Part shown: in pieces, positions 14,748 through 45,392 of the stretch
Numbering within the stretch: the stretch's first letter is position 1
Layout of the letters: each line of letters opens with the position of its first letter
DNA from: a virus
Taxonomy: Duplodnaviria > Caudoviricetes
Virus record (IMG/VR): IMGVR_UViG_3300020049_014895
Span: 10,482-74,481 of that record
Direction: 5' to 3' (one strand)
DNA length: 64,000 bases
Program-made: the position numbers and the translations under genes
Notes under the pieces: generated by a model
The model's input: only the letters and a program-made list of their open reading frames with translations
Database searches by the model: none
Told to the model about the DNA's origin: nothing

Positions 14748-14785
14748 CAAATATAATCACTAATTTAGAATGATTATAAATTAGA
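14748..14785 (-). promoter_or_regulatory. Late promoter, copy 1: 23-bp operator + 7 nt + TATATTTG
   Basis: ATTTAGAATGATTATAAATTAGA at 14763-14785; -7 box (CAAATATA on plus) at 14748-14755. Confidence 0.85.
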
Positions 14786-14786
14786 A

Positions 14787-17700
14787 TTACTTTTTAGGAA
14801 CAAGCTCCGGATGCTCAAAAATTAATTGCTTTTTAGCATTATACGCTCCACTCTCATAAAGCTTCTTCAGCTTATCGATTTTATCTTCCACCGAATCTGT
14901 TTTCCACTCAGGAGATAATGTATATTTCTCGACTAAATTAGCACGATTTTTCCCTACATACTTTTGGTATGTTTCATACATCTTCGGATCTAAATTTACT
15001 CGCTCCTTCTTAATGCTAATATAATTTCTAGGAATATTAGGGAGCACATCTCGCTTCATCTTTTCGTCTTCAGCATCATTCCATAATTCATAAATCTTAT
15101 AGTTGTATGAATCGGTGTCAACCTTTTTGCCCTTAGTTACATCAAGTAAATACCATAAATACTTATTATCACCGGCAGGTGCACCTTTAATAGATTCGCC
15201 CCACAAGTTAACCTTTGTAGGCAACTCCTTGCCCATGAACATCTTTGTCTTGAATGTATTGACAAGCTCATCGGAAAATGACTCAGCCTTCGTTACACGA
15301 GAGGTATCATCCTGAGCCTTACTTATATTTGCAAGTGTATTCGGATATACAATAGCACCAAGGGCACCTAAGGTGTTTACTGCCCATTTTCTTTTGGTTC
15401 TTTCATCACCAGTAACAGCTTCAATAAATGTATTTGCACCTTGTAAGAAAGATTGCTCAATAGCAGATTGACCCGAATAAGCAGCGCGATTAAACAAATC
15501 CTGCATCCACCCTATGCTTTCACCCTTCAGTGGCTTCTGGTTAGCGTAAAGCGAGATAAACATCCCGACAACACCCATATTTTTATAATCTACCCAAACA
15601 TCATTATCCTTCACCGTTGGACTTCCACCGGATAACATCCGCTGTAATCCAGAAATATTTAGTGAGTTTGGCGGAACGTTTTGATACTGAATAGCAGTTC
15701 CCTCAATATCTTTTCTATCGGCACTTGGAGTAACAAGTCCATTTTGAACCAATTGTTGCGCACCATAACGAATGCCAAAACCGGTAACTGCTTTCCCAAG
15801 ATATTCTAAAGAAGCCTTTCTATTACCTTGAGTTGCTTCATATAATCCGCGAGCAGATGCATACTCAGGAAACGCATATAACATCGTTTCTCCAAGCAAA
15901 TTTAATGGTGTTTTAACGTATGGAATCTGAGACTTAAACACAACCTTGGCAACATCACCAATGTAAGGGATGCTTGATAATTGCTCTTCCATCCATCGTA
16001 CTCCTTGCTGAGCACCCTTAACCACCCCTTCAGATTGCTGATATACAGCTTTCTCAGAACGAAGCTTTATCTCCTCGGCACTCTTAGCGTCTGGGAACAA
16101 AACAAACTTGTCAAGTTCTTTTCCTTCCAATCCTTTTAGTTTCCCAATTTCATAAGCTGTACCATACTCGGCAGCTTTACGAAATGGTTTATCACCAAGA
16201 TTTAACAATCGGAACATCGTTTCAGCAGGAACTCCAAAAGTCCCCTCCACAAAGTTGTTTATTTGCTGATACGCCTTTATCTTTTTTTCACCGGTTAATC
16301 CATGATAGAAATCTACCATTGACTTTAACGGTTGTAATTGCTGAGATAAATCACGTTCGATCATCTCCTCCGGATTAATACCGCGAATCAATTCTTTTAA
16401 TGACGTTTTAAGCCCCGGCATCACACCTTTAGTTTCGCCTTTCCAGTACGCCAATGCATCAATAGTTCTGCCTTCCTTAATGAGTTTATCCATCAAAGGA
16501 AGCATTTGAGCTTTAGCCATAACAAAATCTGCCATCGATGCAATCCCTCTGGATGCAAATCTCAATGGCTGTATCAAACTATTCGAATAAACGTTCTTTA
16601 CCAATGAAAGCGGACCAAGTAAATTCCCTTGCAAGATTGTAGCAAGCGTGTTGCCCAACTTCTTTTCATTCTTAAAGTAATCGGATAACTCAGCATTTGC
16701 CTTTTGTCCCTCAAACACATCATTCATCCACTCCTTTTGCTTTGCCTTTATTTCTGACTCAGGAGCATTTGAATCAAATAAATCCTGAAGTTCTTTTGCG
16801 GTAATATCCGACTTGTTTATCTTTTCAATGAGAGCGCGAACATTTGCCTCTCCCATGGTATCAATTCCTGGAAGACCAAGCTCCTGAGCGTACATCTCTT
16901 TAAATCGCTCGTTACTCAATCCTCCTAAATTCATAATTTCATCAAGAGCATTCCCCAAAAGTTTCTTTCTGCTTTCCGGAGAAAGTTTTCCAAGTTTCTT
17001 TTCAAGTTTATCCAAAAATTGTTTCTTCACCTCCGGAGGCATCGCATCAAATACTCCCTTTTTAGAGAAATCGGATAACGTTCTTTGTTGTGGATCATAC
17101 TCCTTTGGCACTTTTGCCTTTTTCCACAAATCTTCCAATTGGCCTTCGGTGAAATCAGGATTTTCCTTTTTCATCTTGTTGGCCCATTGCTTAAATCGGT
17201 AGGCTCCCTCTACAAGATAAATTACTCCCATCTCACTATAAATCTCAATCTGCTTACTATTCAATCCGATGATGGAAGCCGATGCCGTTCCTTTTGCTTT
17301 TTTAGCCTCGGCACGTAATTCTTCCAATCGCTTGTCGCGGACCTTCTTGCTATTGAAGATGTTTTCTTTTTTAGGTGCACGCTTGTTAAGTTTTTCCAAC
17401 TCGGCAGCAACCTTTTCCCCAACTACTCGAGCAAAATCTTCCGACTTAACAAACTCATCAATTATTTCTTTTGCGGAAGCAATGTCCTGTTTGTGTCCTT
17501 TTAATGCACTTTCATTTCGCTCCGAAATAGTTTTCTTAATCGCTGAGATGGCTCCTTCAGGAGTTTTTTCAAGCAATCGTTTCCATGCTTTTCCGGCATT
17601 AATTTCTTGCCCGGCCTTACGGAAGTTGTCGGCAGTAAACATGGCAACATCAACGGCTTTATCTTGCCATTTCTTTTGCTCTGCTAATGTCTCAGCAGAT

Positions 17701-20700: not shown

Positions 20701-20745
20701 TTCCGATAACTCTGCGTCCGCAGGAGGTGTCCAATCTTGAGCCAT
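14787..20745 (-). CDS. Giant internal virion / ejection protein (about 1990 aa), split by a frame change at an A10 run
   Basis: Short ORF MAQDWTPPADA...EVAKKK (start 20745) overlaps the 1956-aa ORF at the T10 run 20638-20647. Largely helical and charged; follows two smaller ejection-type genes. Confidence 0.75.
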
Positions 20746-23056: not shown

Positions 23057-23074
23057 ACTTGCAAATATATAAAA

Positions 23075-26000
23075 TTAATTCTTATTACTTAAATTACTTC
23101 CGATATAATAAAAATTAACAGCATTTATTTTATTGTAATCAGTTCCAGTATATCTAAATTTTAACAAGAATGTTCTATCTCGCATAACATCGCCTTCAAT
23201 CAATGGCAATAAAACATTTGGAGTATTTGCATCCCTTAAAACACCCGCATACTGATTATTCTCTTTTTCATCGAAATCACTTATGATCAAACTACTTTCT
23301 TGACCATTCGGGGTTGTTATCGAATAAACTTCCCACGCAGAGTTGGTCTCCTCAGATATTGCTGTTAAAATTTTTACATTTGAAGGATTAGCATTGCAAT
23401 ATACCCAAAATTCAGGCTCCCCAACCGACCCATAAAAACTTCCATAAACAACATTTTCGTTATGCTTCCACAATCCGCCATCCTTAAAAGAAACAAACCC
23501 GGTATTTGATGGACACATCCCTTCCGGATGAAACGTATAAAACGCACTCCATTGATTATATTTTTCATTCCAAGCCAATGTTTCAGCCTCAATAGTTGGC
23601 AACAACTCTCCCTGAATCATTCGCTCAAAGGCTACAACATATTCATTAAACTTTATATCATAAACTCCATAAACACGAGGATACTGATTTGCATTCAAAT
23701 AAGCATTACATTTATCCGAAAAGAAATTATGCATATCACCCACATCCGAAATAGGAGTTAATCCATCATTAGATAATCTCCAAACAATTCCACGATTAAC
23801 ATCTATACCATAATCAACATTATTGTATTCTGCATGTGATTCAGGATTTCTGCCAATTCCTATTTCTCCTGCATAAGGAGAGGTTTCAGGAGACAATACA
23901 GCAGAAGATGCACCAACAGTACTCTGAAGCGACAAGTCATTATAAATAATTCGCCCAACAGGAATCATGCTAATTTTCAACTCCTGCATCATGATGAGTC
24001 CAATGTCCTTTGTTCTTAATTTATAAATCCCTCCGTAAGCCTGAGAATATGTTTGGTAATTTTCATCATAAACAGTACTAAGCCCATTTATACCAGTTTC
24101 CGGAATAAAGTTTTCAGAATAATAAACTGTGCTCGGACGAGTCACCCTTTTAATTTCGGGATCAATTCGATTTACTCGCCCATAATCCGCAGCATTTGAT
24201 GTAAACAAATAACTTGCGCTTGATGCCTCAATATAAGAATATAATCGATAAACACTAACAAATCCAGTTATAAGATATGGCATATCGCATAATCTTCTAA
24301 AACAATCTCCACTCGAAAGAACTGTCTCTGATGCTCGAACAATAGTCCCAGGACCAGAGTTAGGAATTCCAACCAATGTAAATCCTGCTGTATCGATACT
24401 TACAGCGGTTGCCCCTATTGCAGAAACAACACCATACACACTAAATAATCCATTATAAAACTTCACATTCTCCCCAACATTTAGTCCGTGACCCAAAGGA
24501 ACTACACATGTATAAACAGCCCCCACATAAGAAGACGATGTAAGAGGGACAAACATTTGATTAATTGTGCTACCGCTATGAACTAAGTTTCCATACTGAT
24601 CTGCTACAATATCCCCCTCTTCTGCAATTTCATACATCAATTCGTTATCATTTATTACGCTTTCTGCCGGTTGATAAATTTCAAATAGACATCCAGGCAA
24701 TAAATTCAATGGTACAGTTGGAAGTGATGGATTTATTCTAATGTTCAAAACCTGGGTTCCACTATCCCAAGATAATATCTCTGTATCATTAAATGAAAAA
24801 AATGAATCTATTCCGGTAACAGCCGTTGGCAAATAAGGAGAAGTTGAAGTATAGGCAGGATTAGCAATAAACCTAATTCTATCGCCATCAGCATAGTCAT
24901 ACACAAGCTTTGAGTCTCCATTTTCATAAAGATACCTGCCTATAATGCTCCCTAAATCAAGAGTGCAATAAACAGCAAGAGCTGGAGCAACAACCGCCCC
25001 ATTGATGTCAGTGTACCTAATCTCTTGGGCAACAAACTGAAAATATCTACCCATAGACTTATTTGTACTTCTCAATATTTGATATCTTTTTGCCCAACTT
25101 GGAGGCGCATGGTACAACTCGGCCGTAACCTCTGGAACATACTTCATGTCCTCATTGGGACTTCCATGCGGAGCATCATAAAGTGGATCTGTAACAAATG
25201 GGACATATAATGTTGTACCAAATACACTTCCAGTATATTCTGTAGACTTTCCCTTTACAGTATTTGTTAATCCGCTTCTATTTCCCCATTCATCATAATA
25301 AACCATACCACAATCATAAACACCCCCCGACTTTAAAAAAGTCTTGTCAACAAAGAAATTATTTGAAGGAGGAGTAAATTCTTCAAAAGTAATCGGCAAT
25401 CTCATGTCAACGTGCACAGGATCAAAATTTTCAGTAATTAATCCATCTACAATTCTCTGACCAGCAATTATTTCTTGAGCCTGACTTCTTAGCGGAACCC
25501 AATCAAACAATCGGATACTTTCATTGATTTCCAATTGAACATAGTTGCCGTCATTATAAAATGGAAAATCATAAGTAGAATCAGATGAAATACCCAAGGC
25601 ATCTTTTGAAAAGTCAGCAATTAAAGAAAAATCTGTTAATCCTAACTGCTTTCCAGCAATCCTTATTCTTTTTACAATACCACTACCAGTTGGAACAGTT
25701 AGCGTAATTTTATTATCCTGAATATTGAAATCCTCCCCGCTCCCTCCGGCATTTACAGTCGAAGGGAATTCATACCTACTAATTGGCGACCAAGCGCTTA
25801 CCTCATTATCATCATAAACAAACTGAACTTTAAACTGAAAAAGCTTTTTAAATAAATAATTTATTTTCTGATCCGAATCAGTGCTCCAAACATAAGTTGG
25901 AGACGATGAAGGAGGTTGCTTTACGCGAGTAATAAACCTTGGTTCAAAAGGAGCCGGATAACCATTAATGTAATCTCCGGCTGAATGCAATTTCGCCTTT

Positions 26001-26488
26001 TCAATGTTTACCTTCTTTGGCTCATTATAATCATTTTCATCCCCAGGATTAACATAATTGTCGGTCCAATACAATAAATGATTTTCTGAATCAAGTTCAA
26101 CAACATTAATCCCTGTAATTAAAAAATCAGAACTAAAATTCAAATAGTATGGCGCAGAAACAGCCTCTCTTAAAACAAGAGAAATAATATTTGTTGCGTA
26201 ATTATACTCAAGAATAGAATGAGCCAACACATCATTAAAAACAAAATAGTATATTTTTTTTGTTTTAATATCCTCCTTAGAGCCAATTACAACATTATTC
26301 CCAGCAGGCAACGAATAAGAAACAAGCGAGTTTCCAAGCATTGTTTCAATTGCTCCTGTTTCATCATTATCTGAAGACAAAACACGCACATTCACTCGAT
26401 GCCTTGCCTTACCAGGAATTTGCATCTTGTCTGACTCGGGAGAATTATCCGAATCCATTCCTAATGTAAATATAATTTTTTGTTGCAT
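23075..26488 (-). CDS. Tail stabilisation / nozzle (muzzle) protein, P22 gp10-like, crAss-like type
   Basis: N-terminal FTLGMDSD...VNVRV...GAIE.MLGN and C-terminal WSAFYTFHPE...SFKDGGLWKHN patterns; 1137 aa; follows the ring proteins. Confidence 0.8.
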   Translation of the reverse strand: MQQKIIFTLGMDSDNSPESDKMQIPGKARHRVNVRVLSSDNDETGAIETMLGNSLVSYSLPAGNNVVIGSKEDIKTKKIYYFVFNDVLAHSILEYNYATNIISLVLREAVSAPYYLNFSSDFLITGINVVELDSENHLLYWTDNYVNPGDENDYNEPKKVNIEKAKLHSAGDYINGYPAPFEPRFITRVKQPPSSSPTYVWSTDSDQKINYLFKKLFQFKVQFVYDDNEVSAWSPISRYEFPSTVNAGGSGEDFNIQDNKITLTVPTGSGIVKRIRIAGKQLGLTDFSLIADFSKDALGISSDSTYDFPFYNDGNYVQLEINESIRLFDWVPLRSQAQEIIAGQRIVDGLITENFDPVHVDMRLPITFEEFTPPSNNFFVDKTFLKSGGVYDCGMVYYDEWGNRSGLTNTVKGKSTEYTGSVFGTTLYVPFVTDPLYDAPHGSPNEDMKYVPEVTAELYHAPPSWAKRYQILRSTNKSMGRYFQFVAQEIRYTDINGAVVAPALAVYCTLDLGSIIGRYLYENGDSKLVYDYADGDRIRFIANPAYTSTSPYLPTAVTGIDSFFSFNDTEILSWDSGTQVLNIRINPSLPTVPLNLLPGCLFEIYQPAESVINDNELMYEIAEEGDIVADQYGNLVHSGSTINQMFVPLTSSSYVGAVYTCVVPLGHGLNVGENVKFYNGLFSVYGVVSAIGATAVSIDTAGFTLVGIPNSGPGTIVRASETVLSSGDCFRRLCDMPYLITGFVSVYRLYSYIEASSASYLFTSNAADYGRVNRIDPEIKRVTRPSTVYYSENFIPETGINGLSTVYDENYQTYSQAYGGIYKLRTKDIGLIMMQELKISMIPVGRIIYNDLSLQSTVGASSAVLSPETSPYAGEIGIGRNPESHAEYNNVDYGIDVNRGIVWRLSNDGLTPISDVGDMHNFFSDKCNAYLNANQYPRVYGVYDIKFNEYVVAFERMIQGELLPTIEAETLAWNEKYNQWSAFYTFHPEGMCPSNTGFVSFKDGGLWKHNENVVYGSFYGSVGEPEFWVYCNANPSNVKILTAISEETNSAWEVYSITTPNGQESSLIISDFDEKENNQYAGVLRDANTPNVLLPLIEGDVMRDRTFLLKFRYTGTDYNKINAVNFYYIGSNLSNKN

Positions 26489-29524: not shown

Positions 29525-31198
29525 TTATTTTTCAAAATATTTAACCATTAATTGATTTTGAGTAATTGTTTCAGTGTTTGATGTAGCATCATAATTTGTC
29601 CCAAAACAAGCAAAAACTAAAGGGTTAACAGACAAGTCTGCAACCGCAAAACCTGCGCCAGTCCCCTCATCAAAATTATAACCACTTAATCGAGTATAAT
29701 TATTACTTGATGTCATAGTATCAATAGTGATGTAAACTGCAAGTAATGAAATTCTAGTAATTGCAATTTTAACCTTGCAATATTTTGTGTCCGGAGGCAA
29801 TAAAATAGTATTTGACGCAGGAGATGGAGTAAGCTTTGTAATAAAATTTGAACCACCTAAAGTGAAGGAAATGTTCTTGTCCTGTGTTGTTGCACTCATA
29901 ACATATGATGCATCAATCTCTATTACATCACCATTCGTTGCCAAGGTATCTGCAGGAATAGTGTAAGTCATTAACGGATCTGTACCGGCCCCAGAAGTAC
30001 TTACAGAAGTTAAGTTGTTACTTAGAACAATTGGCGGAATTGCAATAGTTTGAGTTGCCGCATTCACCGTAAATGTTCTTACACCGGCAACAATCCCGCT
30101 ATCAGCAATAGATGTAATATTTGTTCCGGCAGCCACAACAGTATTATAATGACCAGTAACTGAAGCAATAAATCCAGTACTCAAAGTCACTGTATAAGTA
30201 GTCGTTGTTCCAACCGTTACTGGTGTTACAATTACAACTGAATCACCACTTTCAACAACAGTTGTGTTTCCTGCGCCACCTAATCCTGTAACTAATCCAG
30301 CTTCAGAACTACCACAAGAACAATCATCGGTAAAGTTCCCAATTTCTCGCATCCTATCTAAATAACCAGTTACATCTGTAGGTTTTCCACACTCAATAGC
30401 CAACTTAGCCAATTGAGCCAATGCCATCAACTGAGCAAACAACATTTGAAGCCTACTATATTCGGATGGATTGCATTGAGCTGCAACCATTTGTTGCTCA
30501 ATGCTTCTTAATCCACAATAAACAGCACAAATATATGTGCAATCAACGACAACCTCCTGGGCTGCAGTAACTGTATCCAGTATAATTAATTCATCGCTAA
30601 ACACATAAGTAAGAGTAGATGTTATTTGAGTGGATTGCGTTCCATTTGCAAACCCCTCAAATCCGGCCGTTATAACAGAAGATGCAGAAGTTAACGTTGA
30701 CAATCCAGACCCCAAAGGGAATTGCAATAAATGTTGTCTAACAATAGATGTTGGAGACGTTGAATTAACAACATAATTTGTCGCATCCGTAGATGTAAAT
30801 AACGGAGAAACGCAATCAACCGTCTGCGTAATTGCAACTTCCGGTGATACATATTCATACGTATACGTATTTGTTACAGTAGAATAAACAGTTAAGTTGC
30901 TATCGTATACAGAATAAACGATTGTATAGGCACCAACCTCTGGGAATCCATCAGCAGCCAATGGCAACTGAATTACTTGCTGGTTTTCTCTTGAAACACT
31001 ATTTCGTACATCACACCCTCCATTTGAATAATCAGTGTTGTTATAAATAACAATCCCGCTTGGAGACGTAATATTGAAAACCCCATTAACATCGGCCAAA
31101 GCAATCCCTTGTCCAACATAATCAGCAGTATCTTCAAGTGTAAATATTTTAGGGGTTCCTGTTAAATCGAATGTAGTATTAAACGATATTGTTGCCAT
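29525..31198 (-). CDS. Structural protein (tail hub/fibre-associated)
   Basis: 557 aa, Thr/Val-rich; first gene after late promoter copy 2. Confidence 0.6.
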   Translation of the reverse strand: MATISFNTTFDLTGTPKIFTLEDTADYVGQGIALADVNGVFNITSPSGIVIYNNTDYSNGGCDVRNSVSRENQQVIQLPLAADGFPEVGAYTIVYSVYDSNLTVYSTVTNTYTYEYVSPEVAITQTVDCVSPLFTSTDATNYVVNSTSPTSIVRQHLLQFPLGSGLSTLTSASSVITAGFEGFANGTQSTQITSTLTYVFSDELIILDTVTAAQEVVVDCTYICAVYCGLRSIEQQMVAAQCNPSEYSRLQMLFAQLMALAQLAKLAIECGKPTDVTGYLDRMREIGNFTDDCSCGSSEAGLVTGLGGAGNTTVVESGDSVVIVTPVTVGTTTTYTVTLSTGFIASVTGHYNTVVAAGTNITSIADSGIVAGVRTFTVNAATQTIAIPPIVLSNNLTSVSTSGAGTDPLMTYTIPADTLATNGDVIEIDASYVMSATTQDKNISFTLGGSNFITKLTPSPASNTILLPPDTKYCKVKIAITRISLLAVYITIDTMTSSNNYTRLSGYNFDEGTGAGFAVADLSVNPLVFACFGTNYDATSNTETITQNQLMVKYFEK

Positions 31199-31217
31199 GA
31201 GATATGATTATTTTCCC

Positions 31218-31255
31218 CAAATATAATCACTAATTTAGAATGATTATAAATTAGA
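31218..31255 (-). promoter_or_regulatory. Late promoter, copy 2: 23-bp operator + 7 nt + TATATTTG
   Basis: Motif at 31233-31255; -7 box at 31218-31225; about 40 bp identical to copy 1. Confidence 0.85.
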
Positions 31256-31257
31256 AA

Positions 31258-33306
31258 CTATTTTATCTCCCTACTTTCCATCCCACGATTATCATATTTC
31301 TTGAAAAAATTTATTGGAGTAAAAACCCTTTCCGGAGCCACATAAGATTTTGATCCAATAATAGCATACATCGCAGATACAGTTAAATCGTAATCCGTCC
31401 AATTTTCTACATCAAAACTTGCCCAATCAGTTAATGTATCATCAAACATACAACAACCCATTTTACCAGTTTCGGTGTTTACCCCAATATTCTGATAAAC
31501 GTAAGACTGCATGTGTTCTACTAACATCCTTCTAATCCCACTATCAACCTGTCCAGTATTAGGAATCCATTTCTCTTTTTGATTCTTTTCCGAATAATCA
31601 GAATGAGTAAAAGCAGGCCTGTCCATTAAATAATTTTCATACCCACGATTTCTAAAGTGATTTATGCATCCAGGCTTATTTGATTCACCCAAAATCTCCC
31701 ACCCATAAAAGACACATTGCATCAGCATGTCTTCATAAAAAATAGAAGGATCTGCAGGACGCCCCCAATATTGAGTAACAAAAATGTTCGACATATGTCC
31801 ATCAATTATGCTTAACTTCCGGAACCCATGAGACGCAGCCTTAGATCGCTTATTTGAAGAGGTATATTTGTGATCAATTGGATCGGTTGAAAACACTCCT
31901 TCGTGTGTATTTGCTGGTGCTTTTTGTCCATACTTAGTTGTAGACTTGTTCCGGTCCTCAACTCTTGGCATCCAATACACAAGCCACTTTCCATTAACAT
32001 CATCCTCAAAAACAACCTCCGTATCTCGTTGCCCTCCCTTCCATACAAAGTTCCCTCTTCTTAAATGATTTTTAGTATTATTCAAATTGTGTTCAATTTG
32101 AGCATAAATCTTATCCAAATCAAAAACGGTTCTCTCGTTTGCTGGATCCATAAACATTTCTGCTTCAGTGAAAGGCCTTTGGCGAAGTTCTTCATAGTAA
32201 CCAACAATATCGCCCTCATCCTTTTTTGCCTTCCTTTCATTCTCTAAATATTCGCGTGCACCAATTTTTATCCAACACCCATCTATCCCCATAATTGGTT
32301 CGGAAGGAGTATCAATAACACTCATCCCGTATTCATCTATAAAACTCTCGAGTCCATCGTATGCCGGAACAAAATATCTCCACAATCCACTTTTAGTTCT
32401 ACCATTGGCTGTTTTCTCGAGAATGCTTGACCGGTTCCAAATGGCCTTAAAATTAGCCCCACCTTTTAACGACTCGTTCACTGTCGATCCAAAAAACATT
32501 TTTCCGATAATCTTACCTCCAAGCGTAACACAAGTTTTTGCAATATTAAACCACTTCTCCACATTGGCTGATTCCCATTTCCCGGCCTCATCGGCTGCCA
32601 ATATTTTAAGTTTCATACCATCGTAAGTATTCTCCCCTGTCGCTCGATAATCAATCTTAGTTCCCAAACTCACTTCTTTCTTGGTAACGCGAGTTTTCAT
32701 TGTGATTTTCTGTTGAGGAGTCTTAAACTCTAAAACCTTCTGAACATCTTCGGCAGACTTTACCTGTGGCTTAAAAAATGGAGGATAATTTATAAAACCA
32801 TGAATTAACTTAGAAAACATTTCCTTGGCATCGTCTCCGGTTTTTGACACAATACCATAATTTGAGTCAAATGTTTTTCTTGCCCGGTTTAGAATAACTG
32901 AATCCACTCGATAAGAATACCCATCTCTTCGAAGCTTCCCATAATCTTGACCAACACAATCAATATCGTTGTCGCACATCCACCAATGATAAAACCATCG
33001 CCTATCTCTATCTCGATATTCAGGATATCCTGAGTCTATTTTAAACCAATTACAATAATGGTAATGGTCTCCAGTAATATACGTTATAACCCCATTATTG
33101 TAAAAGTGAATTCCATCCCGACACTTCCGGTTTTCTTCGAACGCAAACTCATCCTTCTCCTCTTGTGATAAATAATCGTAGTTTTCTGGAAACTCTGTTC
33201 TTGTCCATTTTTGCTCCTTTTTAGGCTTGTTCCAATTAAGAATTTGCTCCTTTTTGGGAGGAGCCGGAACCTTAAAAATAAGTCCTTCATATAATTCTAC
33301 TTCCAT
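31258..33306 (-). CDS. terL: Terminase large subunit (crAss-like type)
   Basis: ITGDHYHY, KLRRDGYS (Walker A region), ILAADEAGKW (Walker B), RNase H-like STDPID and ESNKPG motifs. Confidence 0.92.
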   Translation of the reverse strand: MEVELYEGLIFKVPAPPKKEQILNWNKPKKEQKWTRTEFPENYDYLSQEEKDEFAFEENRKCRDGIHFYNNGVITYITGDHYHYCNWFKIDSGYPEYRDRDRRWFYHWWMCDNDIDCVGQDYGKLRRDGYSYRVDSVILNRARKTFDSNYGIVSKTGDDAKEMFSKLIHGFINYPPFFKPQVKSAEDVQKVLEFKTPQQKITMKTRVTKKEVSLGTKIDYRATGENTYDGMKLKILAADEAGKWESANVEKWFNIAKTCVTLGGKIIGKMFFGSTVNESLKGGANFKAIWNRSSILEKTANGRTKSGLWRYFVPAYDGLESFIDEYGMSVIDTPSEPIMGIDGCWIKIGAREYLENERKAKKDEGDIVGYYEELRQRPFTEAEMFMDPANERTVFDLDKIYAQIEHNLNNTKNHLRRGNFVWKGGQRDTEVVFEDDVNGKWLVYWMPRVEDRNKSTTKYGQKAPANTHEGVFSTDPIDHKYTSSNKRSKAASHGFRKLSIIDGHMSNIFVTQYWGRPADPSIFYEDMLMQCVFYGWEILGESNKPGCINHFRNRGYENYLMDRPAFTHSDYSEKNQKEKWIPNTGQVDSGIRRMLVEHMQSYVYQNIGVNTETGKMGCCMFDDTLTDWASFDVENWTDYDLTVSAMYAIIGSKSYVAPERVFTPINFFKKYDNRGMESREIK

Positions 33307-33753: not shown

Positions 33754-34779
33754 CTAAAGCGCATTAATTGCCGTTTGAATTTGAGCTGCTGTTTGAGCAA
33801 CTTGCAACGCCTGAAGAGCAGTCCCCTGAGCATTATAAAGAATGTTGCATCCAGCCCCACCGCTTAATGTGAGTGTTGGGTAAGCAGCACTTGACACATA
33901 CTCTCCTGCATTTGTAATTGCTGTTCCTGTTACCTCGCCTGTAGAAGGAGTAATAGAAGCGGTTGCTGTTGCCAAAACAACACCTGCACTAAACGTTAAA
34001 GTAGGAGCAACATTATAGTTTGCCCCAGGATCAGTAATTGTCAAAGCCTCAACTTTCATCTTAATCGTACCAGTAGCGCCTGTGCCATCTCCACTAATTG
34101 TAACCGTTGGCATAGAGGTGTACCCCGTTCCATTTGCAGTAATTGTAATTGAAGTTACAGCGTCTGCTGTTAAAGAGGCTGTTGCCGTTGCTCCCGTTCC
34201 TCCACCACCAGTAATCGCAACAGTTGCAGCAGTATACCCAGACCCTCCAGCGGTAACGACTCCGGTTCCTGTTTTCACATTTGTTGTAAACGTAATCTCA
34301 GCATCATCTGTTACCGGTTCAGCAACAACAGAATCAATATACAAATTGTTAATGTATCGAGTCGCTGAATCTTGTTGCATTGTGATAGCAAATGTGTTTC
34401 CTGCAGCAGTATTAATATCTGAGGCGTTTTCGGTTACAATATATTTTACAGGATAATTAGTGTATCCATTGTAAAGAATCTGAGTAGTTGAACCTAAATC
34501 ATCCACGAAAATCATTTTATCGCTATGCAAATAAATAACGGTTGAATTTGCATCCGCAAGAGTCACGGCTTGAGTTCTTGCAGCAGCCGTATTGATTGTG
34601 GCAACAGCCTCACCTACTTCTCGAACGACAATATTATCGCGATTATCAAGGTAAGTTAATTGAGTATCAGCGCCAGAATTAATTGCGGTGAAATTTAAGA
34701 TAGAATCAGCAGACAACTTAAAAGTTGCTCCAGTTGCTAAATCAGTTAGCGATATTGATTTTGATGCTTGAACAGCCAT
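33754..34779 (-). CDS. Virion decoration/fibre-like protein with Gly-rich (T.GGSGYT) repeats
   Basis: [24 protein letters not shown] and TNAGEY repeats; has its own late promoter. Confidence 0.6.
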
Positions 34780-34805: not shown

Positions 34806-34843
34806 CAAATCTATTAATTTATTTAGAATGATTATAAATTAGA
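34806..34843 (-). promoter_or_regulatory. Late promoter, copy 3: 23-bp operator + 7 nt + TAGATTTG
   Basis: Motif at 34821-34843; -7 box at 34806-34813. Confidence 0.85.
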
Positions 34844-37566: not shown

Positions 37567-37839
37567 CTACACTAACGTCTCTTTACTATACAAATCGTAT
37601 TCTAATGTAACAGGAACACGCTCAAAAGCCTTCCACAAAACAGTCACACTCTCTCCCGAAATTTTTGCGTAAATCAAAAATCTAGCACACCCAAAAAGAT
37701 GAAACTGATTTAAGTCCTCTACAATATCCGTAATAGTTTTGTCTCCAAACCTTTGTCCAACAGAAAAAGCTAAGCCTTCATCTTTTGGATTAAGGCCAAT
37801 AACAATTTTCCGTATAACACCAGTTGGAGTCCTATCCAT
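37567..37839 (-). CDS. Conserved hypothetical protein of Bacteroidota phages
   Basis: IRKIVIG...FSVGQ...IY.K...LWKAF..VPVTLEYDL pattern, adjacent to the GroES-like gene. Confidence 0.65.
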   Translation of the reverse strand: MDRTPTGVIRKIVIGLNPKDEGLAFSVGQRFGDKTITDIVEDLNQFHLFGCARFLIYAKISGESVTVLWKAFERVPVTLEYDLYSKETLV

Positions 37840-38201: not shown

Positions 38202-38235
38202 GGTTTTTTATTTTTACAAATATATAAAATAATAA

Positions 38236-38673
38236 CTATTGACGATAAAAACTGTACTTTATTTTACCATAATATTCTTCGTGCCACTCATAATTCATTG
38301 GATTAACCTCTACAACACTATCCTTCAGGCTACCATTAGTATTTTGCTCGGCAACATAAATTTTATCACCTACAATCTTATAAACAATACAAACATGGCT
38401 AACCTTACGCTTTGTTCCACCTGTCATTCTACAAATATCTCCAGGCCGAATATCTTTCAACTTAACCTCTTTCCCATATTTATTTTTTTCAGCACAGCTA
38501 CCATCATAGTCTACATTATACGTTCTTATGGCAGACTGAACAAGTTCATAACACAACCCGCTTCCAATCTTCTTCCCTTTATTTTCGTCCACAAATTTCA
38601 GAATTTGTTCTTGATGGCTTTGCCCTAAAATCCTTGATGTTACAAGCAAAAATAAAAAAATTAAATTCTTCAT
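38236..38673 (-). CDS. Secreted CHAP/NlpC-P60-like protein
   Basis: Signal peptide MKNLIFLFLLVTSRILGQ; GSGLCYELV (Cys), PGDI, SHVCIV (His) and AEQN. Confidence 0.6.
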   Translation of the reverse strand: MKNLIFLFLLVTSRILGQSHQEQILKFVDENKGKKIGSGLCYELVQSAIRTYNVDYDGSCAEKNKYGKEVKLKDIRPGDICRMTGGTKRKVSHVCIVYKIVGDKIYVAEQNTNGSLKDSVVEVNPMNYEWHEEYYGKIKYSFYRQ

Positions 38674-38724
38674 AGTATATCAATTTTGATATGTTTTACG
38701 CAAAGATATACAAAAAGTTACACG

Positions 38725-38762
38725 AAATAAAAAATCCTCCCAAAATTAATTGAGAGGATTTT
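38725..38762 (-). terminator. Intrinsic terminator
   Basis: AAAATCCTC/GAGGATTTT stem plus U-tract after the 380-aa gene. Confidence 0.65.
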
Positions 38763-38779
38763 GATTAAGAAATTATTTA

Positions 38780-39922
38780 TTAAAAAATTTCAGACTTTAG
38801 TTTTGCCAATAAAACAGGATTCGTCTTCAATTCCATCATTAAATCCGGCAATTTGTGATTTTTCTCATTATACTTATACCAAAATGGCTTAGAAAAAATA
38901 ATCACACCTTTTGTTACTCCAGACTCAATATATCGAGATAGGTCTTCATCAGAAACATCTGCAACAATCACTTGAGGAATCACCGGTTTTAAATCGCTCG
39001 CAATCTGATTCATTTCGGGTTCAGAAGGAGTATTTTGCAACTCAGTTTTAATCGATGGAACTTTTTTCTCCGGACGCATCATTCCCATAATTGCATCCCA
39101 AACCTTCTCTCCATTTGGAGTAAATGTTGCATCAACAAAATCATCAACTAAATCTTTACCCATCGGGGCCTGAGTAATAGCATTACCAGCTTTCCAATTA
39201 ATTGTATTTGTAGACATATTCTTTTCAATGATTCCCATCTTCAGGGCTTCCATCGTGAAATACTTTCGCTTCATTTTTGGAGACTTCAATCCGTCCATAA
39301 ATTTTTTCGGATCAGCCGTTGCTCTTAATCTCAATGCATAACGGATCTCTCTCGGGTCTGAGTCCAAAGGAATTCCGCAAACCATTGCATACGCAGCAAC
39401 CTCATCCCAATCTCCCTTATAACAGAAATGTTGTGCTTCAGATAACATTTCGTCAGCATCCATCACAGATTGCAATCCTTGTCCCGGATCAACAGTAAAA
39501 AATTTAATCTTGGCAGTTTTATCTCTTTCCAAGTTACTACCATTTTTATTTGTAGTCATTAAATACTTAATCAGCAATGTTTGTTTCCCATCAATACGCT
39601 TGTCGCCATCAATAAACTCAAGGTAATAAGGCTTTTTAGGGATTTTTTCATCAGATGTTTGCTCGTCCATGTAAATAGACTTCTCTCCAGGGATATAACG
39701 AATAACTCGCTGAATGCCCTTTTCTGCATCAAAAATCTCATCATACAAAGGCATACGAACCGATGGAGGAAAATGTCTTCCAACACCTCTGGCACTTTTA
39801 TAAGAAGGATTTTCATTGATGTGATTCAAAACAAAGACGAATTCTTTGTTTGCATACTTGCCTGATTTGAAATCGGCATACGATCCAAGTTTCCTTGAAA
39901 CACTATTAGCTACTGCTTCCAT
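38780..39922 (-). CDS. Conserved capsid-module protein downstream of MCP (crAss-like)
   Basis: RVIRYIPGEKSIYMDEQ...LEFIDG pattern in the position conserved in crAss-like head modules. Confidence 0.65.
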   Translation of the reverse strand: MEAVANSVSRKLGSYADFKSGKYANKEFVFVLNHINENPSYKSARGVGRHFPPSVRMPLYDEIFDAEKGIQRVIRYIPGEKSIYMDEQTSDEKIPKKPYYLEFIDGDKRIDGKQTLLIKYLMTTNKNGSNLERDKTAKIKFFTVDPGQGLQSVMDADEMLSEAQHFCYKGDWDEVAAYAMVCGIPLDSDPREIRYALRLRATADPKKFMDGLKSPKMKRKYFTMEALKMGIIEKNMSTNTINWKAGNAITQAPMGKDLVDDFVDATFTPNGEKVWDAIMGMMRPEKKVPSIKTELQNTPSEPEMNQIASDLKPVIPQVIVADVSDEDLSRYIESGVTKGVIIFSKPFWYKYNEKNHKLPDLMMELKTNPVLLAKLKSEIF

Positions 39923-39962
39923 TTTTTTTAATTGAATTAAATTTAATTATTAAACTGACTTG

Positions 39963-39996
39963 TAAAAAATCGCGCTGAGACCTTCCCAGCGCGATT
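39963..39996 (-). terminator. Strong intrinsic terminator after the major capsid gene
   Basis: AATCGCGCTG/CAGCGCGATT perfect 10-bp stem followed by a U-tract on the minus strand. Confidence 0.85.
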
Positions 39997-40011
39997 CTAA
40001 TTTTCCTATTG

Positions 40012-41424
40012 CTAAGCTGGAGTTACCCAAACAAAACGACCAGGCGCAAACCCTTCGAAACCATAGTGGCTTCTCCAGTTAATTTGCAAACTATCTTCGT
40101 CATTTGTATAAACTCCGTTAGCACCACCTGTTGGCCACTCTTCCCAATCGCGAGAATATGATCCACCAGCCTTAGCTTGAGAAACATAATTCATACGAAT
40201 TGATGGAACGGATTCTTTTTTGTTATCCGGACCAAATGAATGAACTGACTTATCCATTGGAATAACCACCGCTGAATCAACATACTCTTGACCTGCAGCG
40301 CCTAACATATTTTTGTAATTAAATACATCGTATGTTTTTAAGTTGTAAGTGTAACCTTGAATTTTGAAAGAATCAAAACTAAAGTTCACAGCTTGATTTG
40401 CTCCAAATGTTCCATACTCAAAAGAACCATTCTTCATTTCGATAGTGATAAAATCATCAATACCTGTGCGAAGATTAATACCTGAATAAACAGCATTCGC
40501 TTTCGCTCCGCGATATTTATCCAATTGATCGGTTGTCATTGTTTGCCAATCAGCTTTTGTGATACCAGTAACAGAGTTATAGTTTGTTGTGTTTCCGTAG
40601 TTTTGTACGAAAGGAATCAAACCTTCAGTTTTTGTTAATGTTGGTTGAGCTGTAGCAAGAACAGTGTTTGTGATTTTTTGACCAGTAATCAAAGACACCT
40701 CACGCAAGTTGCGACAAGCAACATAAGCGTCATGTTGTCCCTTGTAGTAATACAAGTAACCCATTTGACCATTTAACCCTTCAACTTCTACCCAAATTTC
40801 CTCACCTAATGCAGTACCAGTAGATTTGTTAGATTCCTTCATGATTTGCATGTTGTTCACATAACGATTAACTCTACGTGCCTGAGATAATGGTTGACCA
40901 GTACCTTCTTGGTGAGCGTTACCGGTAATAATCAATGTATCAGTTGTTAAAACAGCAGGAATTGACTGCCCCAAAACTACTGGAGTAACAGTAAACGTGT
41001 TACCAGAAACTGCCGTAACTTGCGCTTCAACACCATTCGGGAATCTTACTGTATCTTGCAAACGAGTTGGATTTGCTGTTACTGCACCTGCAACTAAATA
41101 AGGAGACATTGCTCCAGAAGGATACGTATAACGATACCCAGCAGCAACTGTTAATACAACTGCAGCGTTTGCCGCTCCACCTGCATCAGCATCACACTGA
41201 ACAACTTCATGCAACCAATCTTCTTCAGAGTGCATGTATTCGATTCCGGAAACTGGGTTCCATCCGCCAAGCTCATTCATTAAGCCTGTCATGTTTTGAT
41301 CTCCTAATGCCTTGTATAATTTAGAATCATACTGAGGCTTTAAAAGATTATATAATTGTGCCGAACCAACCCAATTGTGGGAGGTTACCGCTTGCACCAT
41401 ACTTGGTACTACTGCTAATGCCAT
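40012..41424 (-). CDS. Major capsid protein (crAss-like HK97 fold)
   Basis: 470 aa; LLKPQY...GDQ..TGLM...EYMHSEEDWLH and YVNNMQIMK patterns; located after portal and scaffold and followed by a terminator. Confidence 0.85.
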   Translation of the reverse strand: MALAVVPSMVQAVTSHNWVGSAQLYNLLKPQYDSKLYKALGDQNMTGLMNELGGWNPVSGIEYMHSEEDWLHEVVQCDADAGGAANAAVVLTVAAGYRYTYPSGAMSPYLVAGAVTANPTRLQDTVRFPNGVEAQVTAVSGNTFTVTPVVLGQSIPAVLTTDTLIITGNAHQEGTGQPLSQARRVNRYVNNMQIMKESNKSTGTALGEEIWVEVEGLNGQMGYLYYYKGQHDAYVACRNLREVSLITGQKITNTVLATAQPTLTKTEGLIPFVQNYGNTTNYNSVTGITKADWQTMTTDQLDKYRGAKANAVYSGINLRTGIDDFITIEMKNGSFEYGTFGANQAVNFSFDSFKIQGYTYNLKTYDVFNYKNMLGAAGQEYVDSAVVIPMDKSVHSFGPDNKKESVPSIRMNYVSQAKAGGSYSRDWEEWPTGGANGVYTNDEDSLQINWRSHYGFEGFAPGRFVWVTPA

Positions 41425-41460
41425 AATTTTATGAGTTTCCTAAACTCTCTTTTTAGTTGT

Positions 41461-42603
41461 TTATAAATTTTTTTCGACCTGCTCTTGAGCCTTTGCTCTC
41501 CAATCAACCTTCGAAGTAGTTGGTGTAGGGTTAGCCTCAAAAGAAATGTTTTTAATAGCCTTTACCTCAGACTCCTTGCCCTTGGCTTCAGCATTTTGGT
41601 GTGCAACCTTTACAATATTGTCCTTGTTTTTCCAATACAAAATCATATCATACACAGCCTTTTGATTCATTTTGCCATCCTTGTCTTCAAATTGCTTCCA
41701 AAAAACCGAAATATCTTTCGTCATTGATTTCATCATATCAGCGGCATATTTCTTATCCGCATCCGACACCTCAAAATCAACAGATTCCTTGTCGCTTATC
41801 TTTGTAGATAATTTTGACGTTTTATTAACAAGCTCTTCGTCAACAAACTTCTCCCAATTTTCCTGAGCCAATCTTTCCGATTCAGCTCTTTGCTCTAATT
41901 GTTTTGGGTCTGGTGTCTTAGCAAATACTCGCTCATTTTTGAAGTTAACCAACCACTCTCGATCATTATACGCATCGCGCATTAAAATCTCTCTGTTGGC
42001 GATATCTTCATCGGTTAAGTCCGTATCATCCTTGTCAATCCATTCACTTAAATTATATTTTTTATCTAATTGAATTTCAATTGTCTTATCCGACAATCCG
42101 GCATAATCCGGATGTCTTCGCATTGCCTCCATTCGGATATCCAATGGATTGTCCATGCTGGCGAAATCTTTACTTTGCAATTCAAAGAACTCTGCATCAA
42201 ACTTTACGCCTTTGTTTTTAAGGTCCTGCCAATGCTTTAACTCTTCGTCAAGTTCCTCCTTGGGAGCACTTAAAACAGATTCAATTTCTTCCCACGTTTT
42301 AAATTTTCCTCCAGTCTTCTCAGCAACCTGATCCTCAAAAGATTTTGATGATACAGCATTTTCAATTATTGGCGCATCTACAACAGGCGCTTCAACGGCC
42401 GGAGCTTCAACAATTTGGGTTTCAACAGCCGGAACTTCAACTGCAGGTTTTTCTACTACAGGATTTGTCAAAGAATTTTCCACCGGAGCCGCCTCTACTT
42501 GTGGAGTAATTATATTTTTAAATTCAGAACCGGTTGTGTCTACAACCGAACCTTTGAATGCTTCTTTTAATCCACTTTGGATTTCTTCTTGTATTGGATC
42601 CAT
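41461..42603 (-). CDS. Capsid scaffolding-like protein
   Basis: Acidic, with PAVEAP low-complexity repeats; lies between portal and MCP. Confidence 0.7.
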   Translation of the reverse strand: MDPIQEEIQSGLKEAFKGSVVDTTGSEFKNIITPQVEAAPVENSLTNPVVEKPAVEVPAVETQIVEAPAVEAPVVDAPIIENAVSSKSFEDQVAEKTGGKFKTWEEIESVLSAPKEELDEELKHWQDLKNKGVKFDAEFFELQSKDFASMDNPLDIRMEAMRRHPDYAGLSDKTIEIQLDKKYNLSEWIDKDDTDLTDEDIANREILMRDAYNDREWLVNFKNERVFAKTPDPKQLEQRAESERLAQENWEKFVDEELVNKTSKLSTKISDKESVDFEVSDADKKYAADMMKSMTKDISVFWKQFEDKDGKMNQKAVYDMILYWKNKDNIVKVAHQNAEAKGKESEVKAIKNISFEANPTPTTSKVDWRAKAQEQVEKNL

Positions 42604-42641
42604 TTTGTTTAATTTTAATTAAATTTAACTTATACTAATTA

Positions 42642-42679
42642 CAAATATATATTCTTATTTAGAATGATTATAAATTAGA
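42642..42679 (-). promoter_or_regulatory. Late promoter, copy 4: 23-bp operator + 7 nt + TATATTTG
   Basis: Motif at 42657-42679; -7 box at 42642-42649. Confidence 0.85.
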
Positions 42680-42684
42680 GCGAA

Positions 42685-45336
42685 TTATTTTTTTGCTGGA
42701 ACCTTTTCTTTCGGCTTCACCTTAGCAGCTAAAACAATTTGCTCTGACTTGCTGTCGTGATCCTGATATCCCCTTTGGATGTTGCTTTCATGATCAACCA
42801 TTTTCTCTCTAATCTTCCCTTCATGAGCAATAGTTTCCTTAGCCAAAGTTACTTGCCCAGCGATTTTCGCAACCTCTTTCTTGCCTTCATTAATTGTCTC
42901 TTGGACACCTGTAGCCTTATCGCTATTAATATAAGCGACAATCTCTGCCCCATTGTTTTTAAGTGATTGCAACTGCATCTGCAAATCAAATTCGAAACGA
43001 GCCTTCTCAATATCGGCATTTTTTTGAGCTTCTATTAGTGCAATTTTATTTGCGGTTACAATTTTATCAAGTTCAGCATTAGACTGAGCGGCAACTTGCG
43101 CAGACTGCATCTGCATCTGACCATTAGCCTCTATGTCAGCCATTTTGCTAGCCTCTGCATTTTTACGATTCTTTTCCTCAAGCAAAACCATTAATTGAGC
43201 CGCAGACTTTACATCCTCCTTTAATACAGCCCGAACGCGAACAACATCAGACGGCATCAACACTCCTTGCTCAATTCCAAGATTAATCAAACCCTCAAGT
43301 TGCATGCGCTCCTCATCGTCAGGAAGCATTTCAATATCTATGGCAAACTGATTAAAAGCAATCTTTTTACCATAATTAAGCGTTTCTGTAGAGTACGCAC
43401 CAATGGCGCCAATAAAAGCTTCGTTATTATAAGCAATAGAATCCTGTATCATCAATGCAATTCTGCGAACCTGGCGGACAATCAAATCATTTGCATACGT
43501 AAAAATAGGTCGCAATGCATTGTTAGAAGCTTGAACCGCCATCTTCTGAGTACCAACTAAAGCCTCAGAATCGGGAGAGCTTGCATCAACAGCAGAATTA
43601 TATCCGATTACATCATTCATCTTTTGCAACTCATTATTATATGCAGCAAATAACACAGCAAAATCTTTCCCGATACCATTCTCTAACGGATCAATAACTC
43701 GTCCGTTAATCGCCTGCCCATTCTTGTCTCGACTTCTGAAAGTATATGAACCAGTTTGCTCATACATCTTTGTAATTTCAATGGCGTCCATTTTTGCATT
43801 ATTAGGATTTCCCATTCCAGCAACAATGGTATCCATCCCCTCCAAATCAATCGCCACACCCGGAGGTTTAGCCTTAATTAACAATTGCTGAGTCTTCAGA
43901 TTAATTAAGTTGATTTGATCCTCATGAGGAATCATTCTTTCTACCAAAGATTTATTCTCCATATCATAAATACCGGGAGCAATAATAACTATTGGCAATT
44001 CTGTTTTCGGGGAGTAACTTCCGGAAATATTTTCTCGATCAATATTCTCTGACATCTTATATTGCCAAATAAATTCTGTTCCAGGAATCCACTTTCCTTC
44101 ATATCGATACTGAACCTGCTTGTTTATAACTTCTAATGAAGATTGCTTTTTATCATTCTTAATCTTTGCAAAATACTTTTGAGCATCCACCATAGTTTTA
44201 GCCACAGCCTTCCCGACTTCCATGGCTTCGCCCTTTATCCCCCACTTAGAACCATTATCTACTATAACAATAGTTTCGGGGGAAACCTCGCCTGTAAATT
44301 TATCCGATTTCTTATCAAAGAAAAATCCACCCTTTGGATTTATTTTTTTAGTTCGAACTTCTTTGTTAATAGAAAGAAAAAAGAACTCCATCACCGTAAT
44401 ATTGAAATTGTAATAAGGTCGAGATGCTGTTAAGCCATCATTATCGTAGTACCCCTCATAACTATTAGACCAACTCCAAATTGGATTATTGTTTTTGCCG
44501 GCTTGTGTTTTTGCAATCTCAAACAATTGCTCCTCAGTAAACGATGGATTCATTTGAGCCAACTCTCCAATCTGATATTGTTTTAAAACAGCCTGATACG
44601 GAATATTATGAAAATCCTCATACTTACTATAAGGAGTAATTAAATCAACAGGATCTACATACTCATAACGAATATTTTTTTGTTCATCGTAATAGCGATA
44701 GGTTGCAGCCCGCTTCAAGACAATTAAGTCGCGAATAATCTTCCTTCTTATTGTCTCTGCATCATTATTAATGAAGACAAACTTAATTGCCTTTTCCATT
44801 GCAATCGATGCCGCTGGCTTATACTTTAATTTCAAATCTAATTCCGCCTCTTCATCTGACCCAGGAACGCTTCTCCCCTTATTTATCAATGGAATGCCTG
44901 TAATCTTTTCTGTTTCATCGGAAAATTGTTTCAAGAACATATCCGCATAAAGTTCCGCGCGATGTTTGTCGTACTGAGTTTTAGACTCCGGATCAATTGG
45001 ATTACACTGAATCTTATAATTTTGATTCATCATCTTGCCTACAATGTTATCAACGATTGTAGCAATTCTGTTTACAGGGGAGAAGTCGAGATTAAGATAA
45101 GATGTATCGCCATTCAAGTCAAGACGATCCTTGTATTTCTGAATAGACTCAAGACCTTCTGCATATTTCCTGTTTATAATATCTCGCTGTCTTCGAGTAT
45201 TAAACAGTGTGCTGTTTTTAGAGTACTCCGACCATATCGCCCGTGCATAACGCAACCCATAACTATCTTTTGCCTTCTCGTCTCTTGTCGCTGTAAATGA
45301 TGGGAATGTCGAAATATTTTTGTCGTCTAATGCCAT
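42685..45336 (-). CDS. Portal protein (crAss-like)
   Basis: YGLRYARAIW...RKYAEGLESIQKYKDRL...SYLNLDFSPV and KSLVERMIPHEDQINL patterns; 883 aa. Confidence 0.88.
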   Translation of the reverse strand: MALDDKNISTFPSFTATRDEKAKDSYGLRYARAIWSEYSKNSTLFNTRRQRDIINRKYAEGLESIQKYKDRLDLNGDTSYLNLDFSPVNRIATIVDNIVGKMMNQNYKIQCNPIDPESKTQYDKHRAELYADMFLKQFSDETEKITGIPLINKGRSVPGSDEEAELDLKLKYKPAASIAMEKAIKFVFINNDAETIRRKIIRDLIVLKRAATYRYYDEQKNIRYEYVDPVDLITPYSKYEDFHNIPYQAVLKQYQIGELAQMNPSFTEEQLFEIAKTQAGKNNNPIWSWSNSYEGYYDNDGLTASRPYYNFNITVMEFFFLSINKEVRTKKINPKGGFFFDKKSDKFTGEVSPETIVIVDNGSKWGIKGEAMEVGKAVAKTMVDAQKYFAKIKNDKKQSSLEVINKQVQYRYEGKWIPGTEFIWQYKMSENIDRENISGSYSPKTELPIVIIAPGIYDMENKSLVERMIPHEDQINLINLKTQQLLIKAKPPGVAIDLEGMDTIVAGMGNPNNAKMDAIEITKMYEQTGSYTFRSRDKNGQAINGRVIDPLENGIGKDFAVLFAAYNNELQKMNDVIGYNSAVDASSPDSEALVGTQKMAVQASNNALRPIFTYANDLIVRQVRRIALMIQDSIAYNNEAFIGAIGAYSTETLNYGKKIAFNQFAIDIEMLPDDEERMQLEGLINLGIEQGVLMPSDVVRVRAVLKEDVKSAAQLMVLLEEKNRKNAEASKMADIEANGQMQMQSAQVAAQSNAELDKIVTANKIALIEAQKNADIEKARFEFDLQMQLQSLKNNGAEIVAYINSDKATGVQETINEGKKEVAKIAGQVTLAKETIAHEGKIREKMVDHESNIQRGYQDHDSKSEQIVLAAKVKPKEKVPAKK

Positions 45337-45354
45337 TTATGGGAAATTTGAAAA

Positions 45355-45392
45355 CAAATATAAATTATTATTTAGAATGATTATAAATTAGA
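45355..45392 (-). promoter_or_regulatory. Late promoter, copy 5: 23-bp operator + 7 nt + TATATTTG
   Basis: Motif at 45370-45392; -7 box at 45355-45362; heads the entire late arm. Confidence 0.85.

Follow-up and report, generated by a model that had tools for sequence, protein, structure and literature searches.

We analysed a 23-bp near-palindrome that recurs upstream of virion genes in a tailed phage, presumably one of Flavobacteriia-type bacteria (Duplodnaviria; Caudoviricetes; IMG/VR virus record IMGVR_UViG_3300020049_014895) and whose 19-bp core resembles the operator of the bacterial iron regulator Fur. The window, that is the whole stretch of DNA that was analysed (64,000 nucleotides), comprises bases 10482-74481 of this record, which is 74,481 bp long and rated complete. 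In the window, the minus-strand genes from 5486 to 45336 form a virion block, which also encodes GroEL and tail-fibre-like proteins and is flanked by plus-strand blocks of replication and methylase genes. The predicted Fur-type boxes, the host-type -7 boxes (TAnnTTTG) that follow them and the neighbouring genes are these:

45370..45392, minus strand: Fur-type box 1, exact copy (core 45370-45388), at about -44 to -22 of the portal promoter
45355..45362, minus strand: -7 box TATATTTG of the portal promoter, separated from box 1 by a 7-nt spacer
42685-45336, minus strand: portal gene (phrog_6547, E 2e-76)
42657..42679, minus strand: Fur-type box 2, exact copy; -7 box at 42642-42649
41461-42603 (380 aa, no family), 40012-41424 (470-aa virion structural protein) and 38780-39922: operon behind box 2
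34821..34843, minus strand: Fur-type box 3, exact copy; -7 box TAGATTTG at 34806-34813
33754-34779, minus strand: gene behind box 3 (341 aa), immunoglobulin (Ig)-like virion protein, candidate decoration protein
31258-33306, minus strand: large terminase
31233..31255, minus strand: Fur-type box 4, exact copy; -7 box at 31218-31225
29525-31198 to 23075-26488, minus strand: tail-side operon behind box 4, whose 1137-aa protein matches the virion structural family phrog_14478
14763..14785, minus strand: Fur-type box 5, exact copy; -7 box at 14748-14755
14255-14731 (158 aa) and 12456-14246 (596 aa, tail-fibre-like), minus strand: genes behind box 5, with tail-fibre PHROG matches
53636..53658, plus strand: sixth box (core 53636-53654 identical), in a divergent region, role uncertain
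52703-53407, minus strand (DnaD-like, helicase loader phrog_2514), and 53787-54293, plus strand: genes flanking the sixth box

In an exact sequence scan, we found that the 23-mer ATTTAGAATGATTATAAATTAGA is present at 14763, 31233, 34821, 42657 and 45370 (plus-strand coordinates), as an earlier note on this DNA had claimed; the note had overlooked a sixth copy at 53636, which has 2 mismatches to the 23-mer, both in its last bases and beyond the 19-bp core. The chance expectation is 0.01 copies, 6 copies were reached in 0 of 100 shuffles, and no copy lies in the remaining 10.5 kb of the genome. The five boxes are all intergenic: the minus-strand gene in front of each ends, with its stop codon, 1-11 nt before the box starts. 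Each reads TCTAATTTATAATCATTCTAAAT on the minus strand and is followed after exactly 7 nt, at all five sites and as previously described, by TATATTTG (four copies) or TAGATTTG, with an ATG 16-38 nt past the G of the -7 box. TAnnTTTG itself is enriched between genes: 29 of its 113 matches are in intergenic DNA, which is 8.8% of the genome.

The core, ATTTAGAAT-G-ATTATAAAT, is a 9-1-9 inverted repeat with one mismatch, which agrees with the original description. With the G of the -7 box set at about -7, the -7 box spans about -14 to -7 and the core about -40 to -22, and the box is centred at about -31. The distal half-site (ATTTATAAT) thus occupies the position of the -33 element (TTTG/TTG), and the motif does cover -33. 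When we scanned the genome against ATTTAGAATNATTCTAAAT, we found 6 sites with at most 1 mismatch compared to 0.0 expected; each of the six cores deviates at one position from the N-centred consensus ATTTAGAAT-N-ATTCTAAAT (from PMC5609570). The stretches 14741-14785 and 31211-31255 are identical over 40 nt that include the box, the spacer, the -7 box and the three next bases, and this identity points to a duplication or gene conversion of a putative promoter module.

Elsewhere in the structural block, -7 boxes without the motif are found at 23062, 33682, 38217 and 38701, as had been claimed, and also at 10972. The labels "scaffold" and "capsid" that the earlier note gave to genes of this block are not established, as 41461-42603 has no family match and 40012-41424 matches only as a virion structural protein. 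The 341-aa Ig-like protein has PHROG matches to virion structural and Hc2-type families. The right end of the sixth box together with TTG makes a possible plus-strand -7 box (TAAATTTG, 53650-53657); this box lies within a 380-bp divergent, gene-free region (53408-53786) that may be an early-control or origin region.

The same box in bacterial genomes

In Riemerella anatipestifer (Flavobacteriales), the Fur box has been predicted as ATTTAGAATTATTCTAAAT, and four promoter fragments that carry it were shifted by purified Fur in an electrophoretic mobility shift assay (EMSA; PMC5609570). Deletion of the Fur box or of fur derepresses rhuH in the same species, and the rhuH box, 25 bp and 78 bp from two start codons (PMC11967795), matches in position the RAYM_06185/06180 entry of the earlier list (PMC5609570). 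The phage core and this box have the 19-bp 9-1-9 dyad in common and agree at 17 of the 18 specified bases (1 of 18 differs, apart from the free centre base). The R. anatipestifer consensus and EMSA data support the prediction that the phage core is a Fur operator of the Flavobacteriales type. The palindrome of Flavobacteriia that the earlier note had mentioned is verified as a published Fur box (PMC5609570), from which the phage core is one specified base off.

We found the exact 19-mer in at least 120 bacterial genome stretches and in at least 119 IMG/VR contigs, the latter with at least 83 distinct flank contexts. Among the bacterial matches listed, most are from Flavobacteriales, Sphingobacteriales, Cytophagales and Bacteroidales, the sites fall between called open reading frames (ORFs), and 36 of the 81 downstream genes encode multihaem cytochromes c of ~430 aa. 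Such a cytochrome followed by a molybdopterin-oxidoreductase-like protein of the twin-arginine translocation (TAT) type is an alternative complex III (ACIII) operon. Other downstream genes among these matches are nqrA, nuoA, COX1 and hemA, and the neighbours on the opposite side are MsrB, NqrA and TonB-receptor genes. In host ACIII and nqr operons the exact 19-mer lies 40-59 nt upstream of the -7 box; upstream boxes at ACIII and nqrA are found across Bacteroidota families and are often divergent from msrB (for example L205:2389-3675, L159:2544-3752 and L182:822-2177). In R. anatipestifer, iron restriction lowers the expression of respiratory genes, and a fur mutant has less of an ACIII-like subunit. 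The positions of these boxes suggest that Fur may directly and positively control iron-rich respiratory complexes, an iron-sparing circuit without a small RNA.

To compare the geometry, we scanned 301 Flavobacteriia-class genomes and used the reversed pattern as a control. The pattern AATNATTCTAAAT, then 6-8 nt, then TAnnTTTG has 10 matches compared to 3 for the control, and the genes behind these promoters encode a TonB-dependent receptor, FeoAB, DUF4198 proteins (three times) and an Mrp/NUBPL Fe-S carrier. With spacers of 0-30 nt there are 28 matches compared to 5, clustered at 0-3, 5-8, 14-18 and 23-28 nt; 16 of the 28 boxes are 0-8 nt from the -7 box, with a further cluster at about 27 nt. 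The wider spacers add FeoB, two TonB receptors, HmuY and Mrp, and 11 of the 18 annotated downstream genes are iron-related. A scan against host regulons, which the earlier note had proposed, finds the box at iron-uptake genes of the kind classically repressed by Fur (FeoAB, TonB receptor, HmuY). Bacteroidota use the box in two layouts: a promoter-proximal box on iron-acquisition genes mediates repression by Fe-Fur, and an upstream box on iron-rich respiratory complexes probably mediates positive control. By their predicted geometry, the phage promoters have the promoter-proximal, repression-type layout, and they should need no activator because host promoters with an embedded box are active in the absence of either Fur or the box. 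In both Flavobacteriales and the phage the box overlaps promoters of the -33/-7 type. In the hosts it precedes feoAB, TonB-dependent receptors and HmuY/HmuR-type genes; in contrast, the phage has six predicted boxes in 74 kb and these precede virion genes, not iron-uptake genes.

The 19-mer is also present outside Bacteroidota. In Streptococcus parasanguinis (L127, L141, L165, L166, L170) it is followed after 19 nt by a gene for a VIT1-family iron exporter, and in Anaerolineaceae (L126, L149, L160) it lies between a PerR-like gene and hrcA. FUR-family genes adjoining the exact 19-mer proved to be these PerR-like genes of Anaerolineae, not Bacteroidota genes. The sites in Streptococcus and Anaerolineae fit what we take to be the PerR-type 7-1-7 box.

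Conservation and recurrence in phages

A megablast search with 16 kb of sequence found no match among 50,697 phage records. In relatives (L246-L250) with 79, 75 and 56% portal identity, the box is kept, as the earlier note had suggested checking; at a distance of 7-8 nt from the -7 box, it is found both ahead of the portal gene and directly behind it, in front of the next operon. The sequence changes leave the dyad intact in the variants ATTTATAATCATTCTTAAT, ATTTGTAATCATTCTAAAT and ATTTAGAATGATTCTAAAT, the last a perfect palindrome, and there are 3-4 boxes per ~33-kb fragment, whereas the reversed control gave 0. No box precedes the portal gene in uncultured relatives whose portal identity is 33%. 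In cultured distant relatives, we found no box in Cellulophaga phage phi38:1, Flavobacterium phage elemoC or Tenacibaculum phage Gundel, and Cellulophaga phage phi18:3 has one site only, inside its portal gene. An ancestral box in the wider phage group is ruled out by these four phages and, because the distant relatives are without a promoter box, the trait was gained within the sublineage of this phage.

The box recurs in an unrelated siphovirus-like lineage (L075, which is record G308, L089, L067, L085, L095 and L052), again 7-8 nt from the -7 box, with 2-7 boxes per record or fragment and one in the short L052. Here the boxes precede a portal gene of another family (phrog_12), a prohead protease gene and a major tail protein gene. 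In G308, an asymmetric box is present in both orientations at one 7-nt spacing, which fits a presumed symmetric dimer and not a directional promoter element. In further phage groups, ATTTGGAATWATTCTAAAT plus 6 nt precedes portal genes, or a box precedes major tail genes. Polaribacter phage Freya_1 has boxes before its portal gene, its tail-assembly/tape-measure block and a tail protein gene, two of them perfect palindromes, and Leeuwenhoekiella phage Arctus_1 (L427, PP314354.1) has boxes before its portal region and its tail fibre gene. By sequence comparison, then, predicted Fur-type boxes precede portal, prohead protease, major tail or tail-fibre genes in several apparently unrelated, marine phages. 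When we scanned IMG/VR with the proximal half-site and the -7 box only, most matches were due to chance; the mismatches were bimodally distributed and 12 of 120 matches were true full boxes. We found no paper that describes Fur boxes at phage virion promoters, and the published description of Freya does not mention Fur, iron or promoters.

In a further phage group (L286, L311, L330, L361, L387), ATTTGGAATTATTCTAAAT, 6 nt and the -7 box are followed by a conserved, GC-richer leader of ~45 nt and an ATG; the leader may be structured.

Readings of the boxed promoters

To identify a reader of the box, we searched the phage for regulators. We found no phage-encoded Fur in a six-frame Pfam search, in a phmmer search with Freya gp09 or with a home-made Fur hidden Markov model (--max), and the same Pfam FUR search does detect the divergent paralogue of Freya (positive control). 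There was no Sigma70_r2 or r4_2 match in the phage, with positive controls that worked; there was also no match to T7-type RNA polymerase families, a search whose positive control was silent as well and which is hence uninformative. A host-type -7 box is present at every boxed promoter. The three ORFs that the earlier note had called helix-turn-helix proteins (51917-52216, 2622-2954 and 48447-48752) have no Pfam or PHROG DNA-binding match, and neither have seven of their neighbours. A scan of 20 early ORFs, many of them without known function, also gave no DNA-binding family. By BLASTP, this phage has no DNA-binding protein in common with G308, Freya or Arctus_1; the proteins that it does share with other box-bearers are limited to a replication protein, a methyltransferase and a recombinase. 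The common denominator of the box-bearing phages is a Bacteroidota host whose Fur is predicted to recognise the box.

Taken together, these data lead us to favour, as probably correct, the reading in which host Fe-Fur represses the five virion promoters by occluding the -33 region. We prefer it because the phage core matches the Flavobacteriales Fur box and shares the geometry of the host regulon, because the box is conserved and recurrent in phages, and because this phage has no Fur or sigma-factor match. The 19-bp core would be an operator for host Fur, fused to otherwise host-type sigma-A promoters. An Fe2+-loaded Fur dimer on the core would keep RNA polymerase off the promoter, as happens in hosts at the promoters of feoAB, TonB-receptor and haem-uptake genes, so that the portal, capsid-module, decoration, tail and tail-fibre operons would be silenced jointly as long as Fur is metallated and free, and would fire once Fur loses iron or is outnumbered. 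Virus-particle production is thus probably wired to the iron state of the host. We infer Fur binding in the infected cell, its repressive effect and an iron-gating and/or timer logic from the comparisons above.

Several points weigh against repression by host Fur. The motif-free -7 boxes at 10972, 23062, 33682, 38217 and 38701 are perfect and belong to the chaperonin (GroEL/GroES), terminase, giant ejection-protein and distal tail operons, so the virion block alternates between two promoter classes. The box is not essential to this phage type, since phi38:1, elemoC and Gundel lack it and phi18:3 has its single site within the portal gene. The identity of the five 23-mers extends to 4 bases (TCTA) outside the Fur core; this invariance exceeds the needs of Fur and could reflect another factor or simple duplication of a promoter cassette. 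In iron-replete cells, the phage would need an escape from the Fe-Fur block, by iron loss or by titration. Finally, the reader may be phage-made in some phages. Freya_1 (L421, NC_062746.1) gp09 (4082-4510) is a Fur-family protein (PF01475, E 3.5e-9) that keeps the winged-helix recognition helix, whereas its HHDH motif and its two CxxC metal motifs are lost. It is encoded directly upstream of terS and the terminase genes, is 100% identical in Freya and Danklef, and was found only in the Freya/Danklef genus among the 50,697 phage records. A predicted metal-blind Fur beside Fur-boxed late promoters shows, as we read these genomes, that phages do manipulate the iron switch.

A second, tentative and on balance unlikely reading is that the boxes are a copy-number timer and a decoy for host Fur. 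At entry, six consensus-grade operators would be filled by host Fe-Fur and the virion operons would be off; later, hundreds of replicated genomes with six sites each would outnumber the Fur pool, and the late promoters would fire in step with replication. The host iron-uptake regulon would then be derepressed and Fur-dependent respiratory operons disturbed, as in a natural Fur titration assay, and the metal-blind Fur paralogue of Freya and Danklef would be a protein solution to the same problem. Host-type genomes of 2.4-4.2 Mb have 2-5 sites with at most 1 mismatch compared to 6 in the 74-kb phage; this one phage is thus no poorer in consensus-grade boxes than an entire host-type genome, and replicating phage DNA could plausibly titrate Fur. 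In a variant, virion release would be gated to iron starvation, when neighbouring cells display TonB-dependent receptors, which are candidate phage receptors.

Models for activation through such a box are the T4 MotA box (sigma appropriation) and the late activators Mu C and P2 Ogr. By analogy, a late regulator encoded by the phage and unrelated to Fur would activate through a box that replaces the -33 contact, and the likeness to Fur would be mimicry or coincidence. T4 middle promoters combine a MotA box at -30 with a host -10, and the phage promoters resemble them in that the host downstream element is kept and a specific box, centred near -31, replaces the upstream element. At the optimal spacer they lack a consensus TTG, the invariant 23 bp reach 4 bp past the Fur core, and many early ORFs are without known function. 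However, the searches above found no DNA-binding family in the ORFs tested and no reader common to the box-bearing phages, the same box and spacing mark iron-uptake genes in host genomes, and box copies drift within the genomes of relatives. Unlike in T4, no MotA- or AsiA-like factor was found, and the box, a dyad, is found in both orientations at one spacing and equals a host operator. A MotA-type, phage-specific box was dropped as the leading reading on the host-genome and literature results, and we now consider a phage activator quite improbable. Of the two regulators that the earlier note had proposed, a host Fur-family repressor fits the predicted promoters, which have the same box to -7 geometry as host iron-uptake genes, and a phage-encoded factor keeps the small probability just given.

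It is similarly doubtful that host Fe-Fur acts as an activator, such that virions are made only in iron-sufficient, energetically healthy cells. Expression in iron-replete hosts is intuitively sensible, the phage promoters have no canonical -33 TTG, and Bacteroidota appear to use the box positively at ACIII and nqr operons, as the R. anatipestifer respiratory genes described above would suggest. However, the phage boxes are placed like those of host iron-uptake promoters, whose repression is lifted in the absence of Fur, and not like those of the respiratory operons. No activator class is known to us in which a Fur-type dimer acts from a centre near -31. Finally, a duplicated strong-promoter cassette with an AT-rich upstream element, spread by recombination within the genome and read by no regulator, would explain the AT-rich sequence and the 40 identical nt at the 14763 and 31233 copies, but it is highly improbable, as the dyad is kept and the flanks are not in relatives and unrelated phages, the sequence equals a validated host operator, and the exact 19-mer is present in so many viral flank contexts and in host regulons.

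Repression of virion operons by host Fur would have parallels in phages with iron-regulated toxin genes, namely stx1 (Fur) in Stx1 phages and tox (DtxR) in corynephage beta. In these and, as predicted, in the phage studied here, a phage-borne promoter has an operator for a metal-dependent repressor of the host. In contrast to stx1 and tox, which are each a single cargo (moron) gene for the benefit of the lysogen, the boxes here precede morphogenesis operons and recur across phage lineages. CTXphi, coliphage 186 (tum) and Bacillus phage GIL01 have lytic genes wired to LexA; they and, by prediction, this phage delegate a developmental decision to a global regulator of the host through host-type operators. 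In the LexA phages the signal is DNA damage and the target is the switch between lysis and lysogeny, whereas here the signal would be iron and the targets late structural promoters. If true, this would be, to our knowledge, the first case of a host metal regulator on a phage's own morphogenesis genes instead of a cargo toxin. Bacterial growth is iron-limited in large parts of the ocean, and algal-bloom carbon is broken down chiefly by Flavobacteriia. If assembly is iron-gated, the iron supply would influence when cells lyse, how large the burst is and how much carbon is released, a link between iron supply and phage lysis that is absent from current models. The same design in the cultured phages Freya/Danklef (Polaribacter) and Arctus_1 (Leeuwenhoekiella) makes the idea directly testable.

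The phage may be temperate, because a 225-aa serine recombinase (48752-49429, integrase/invertase PHROGs) is encoded among its methyltransferase genes and because one relative (L249) is classed as a provirus by IMG/VR. In Arctus_1, a Fur-type box (1696-1714) abuts the start of an S24 repressor gene, and in the temperate Flavobacterium psychrophilum phage 6H group (H37-H47) a Fur-type box is found at an S24-type or XRE regulator gene. The placement of these predicted boxes hints that iron status may also feed the switch between lysis and lysogeny in temperate flavobacterial phages.

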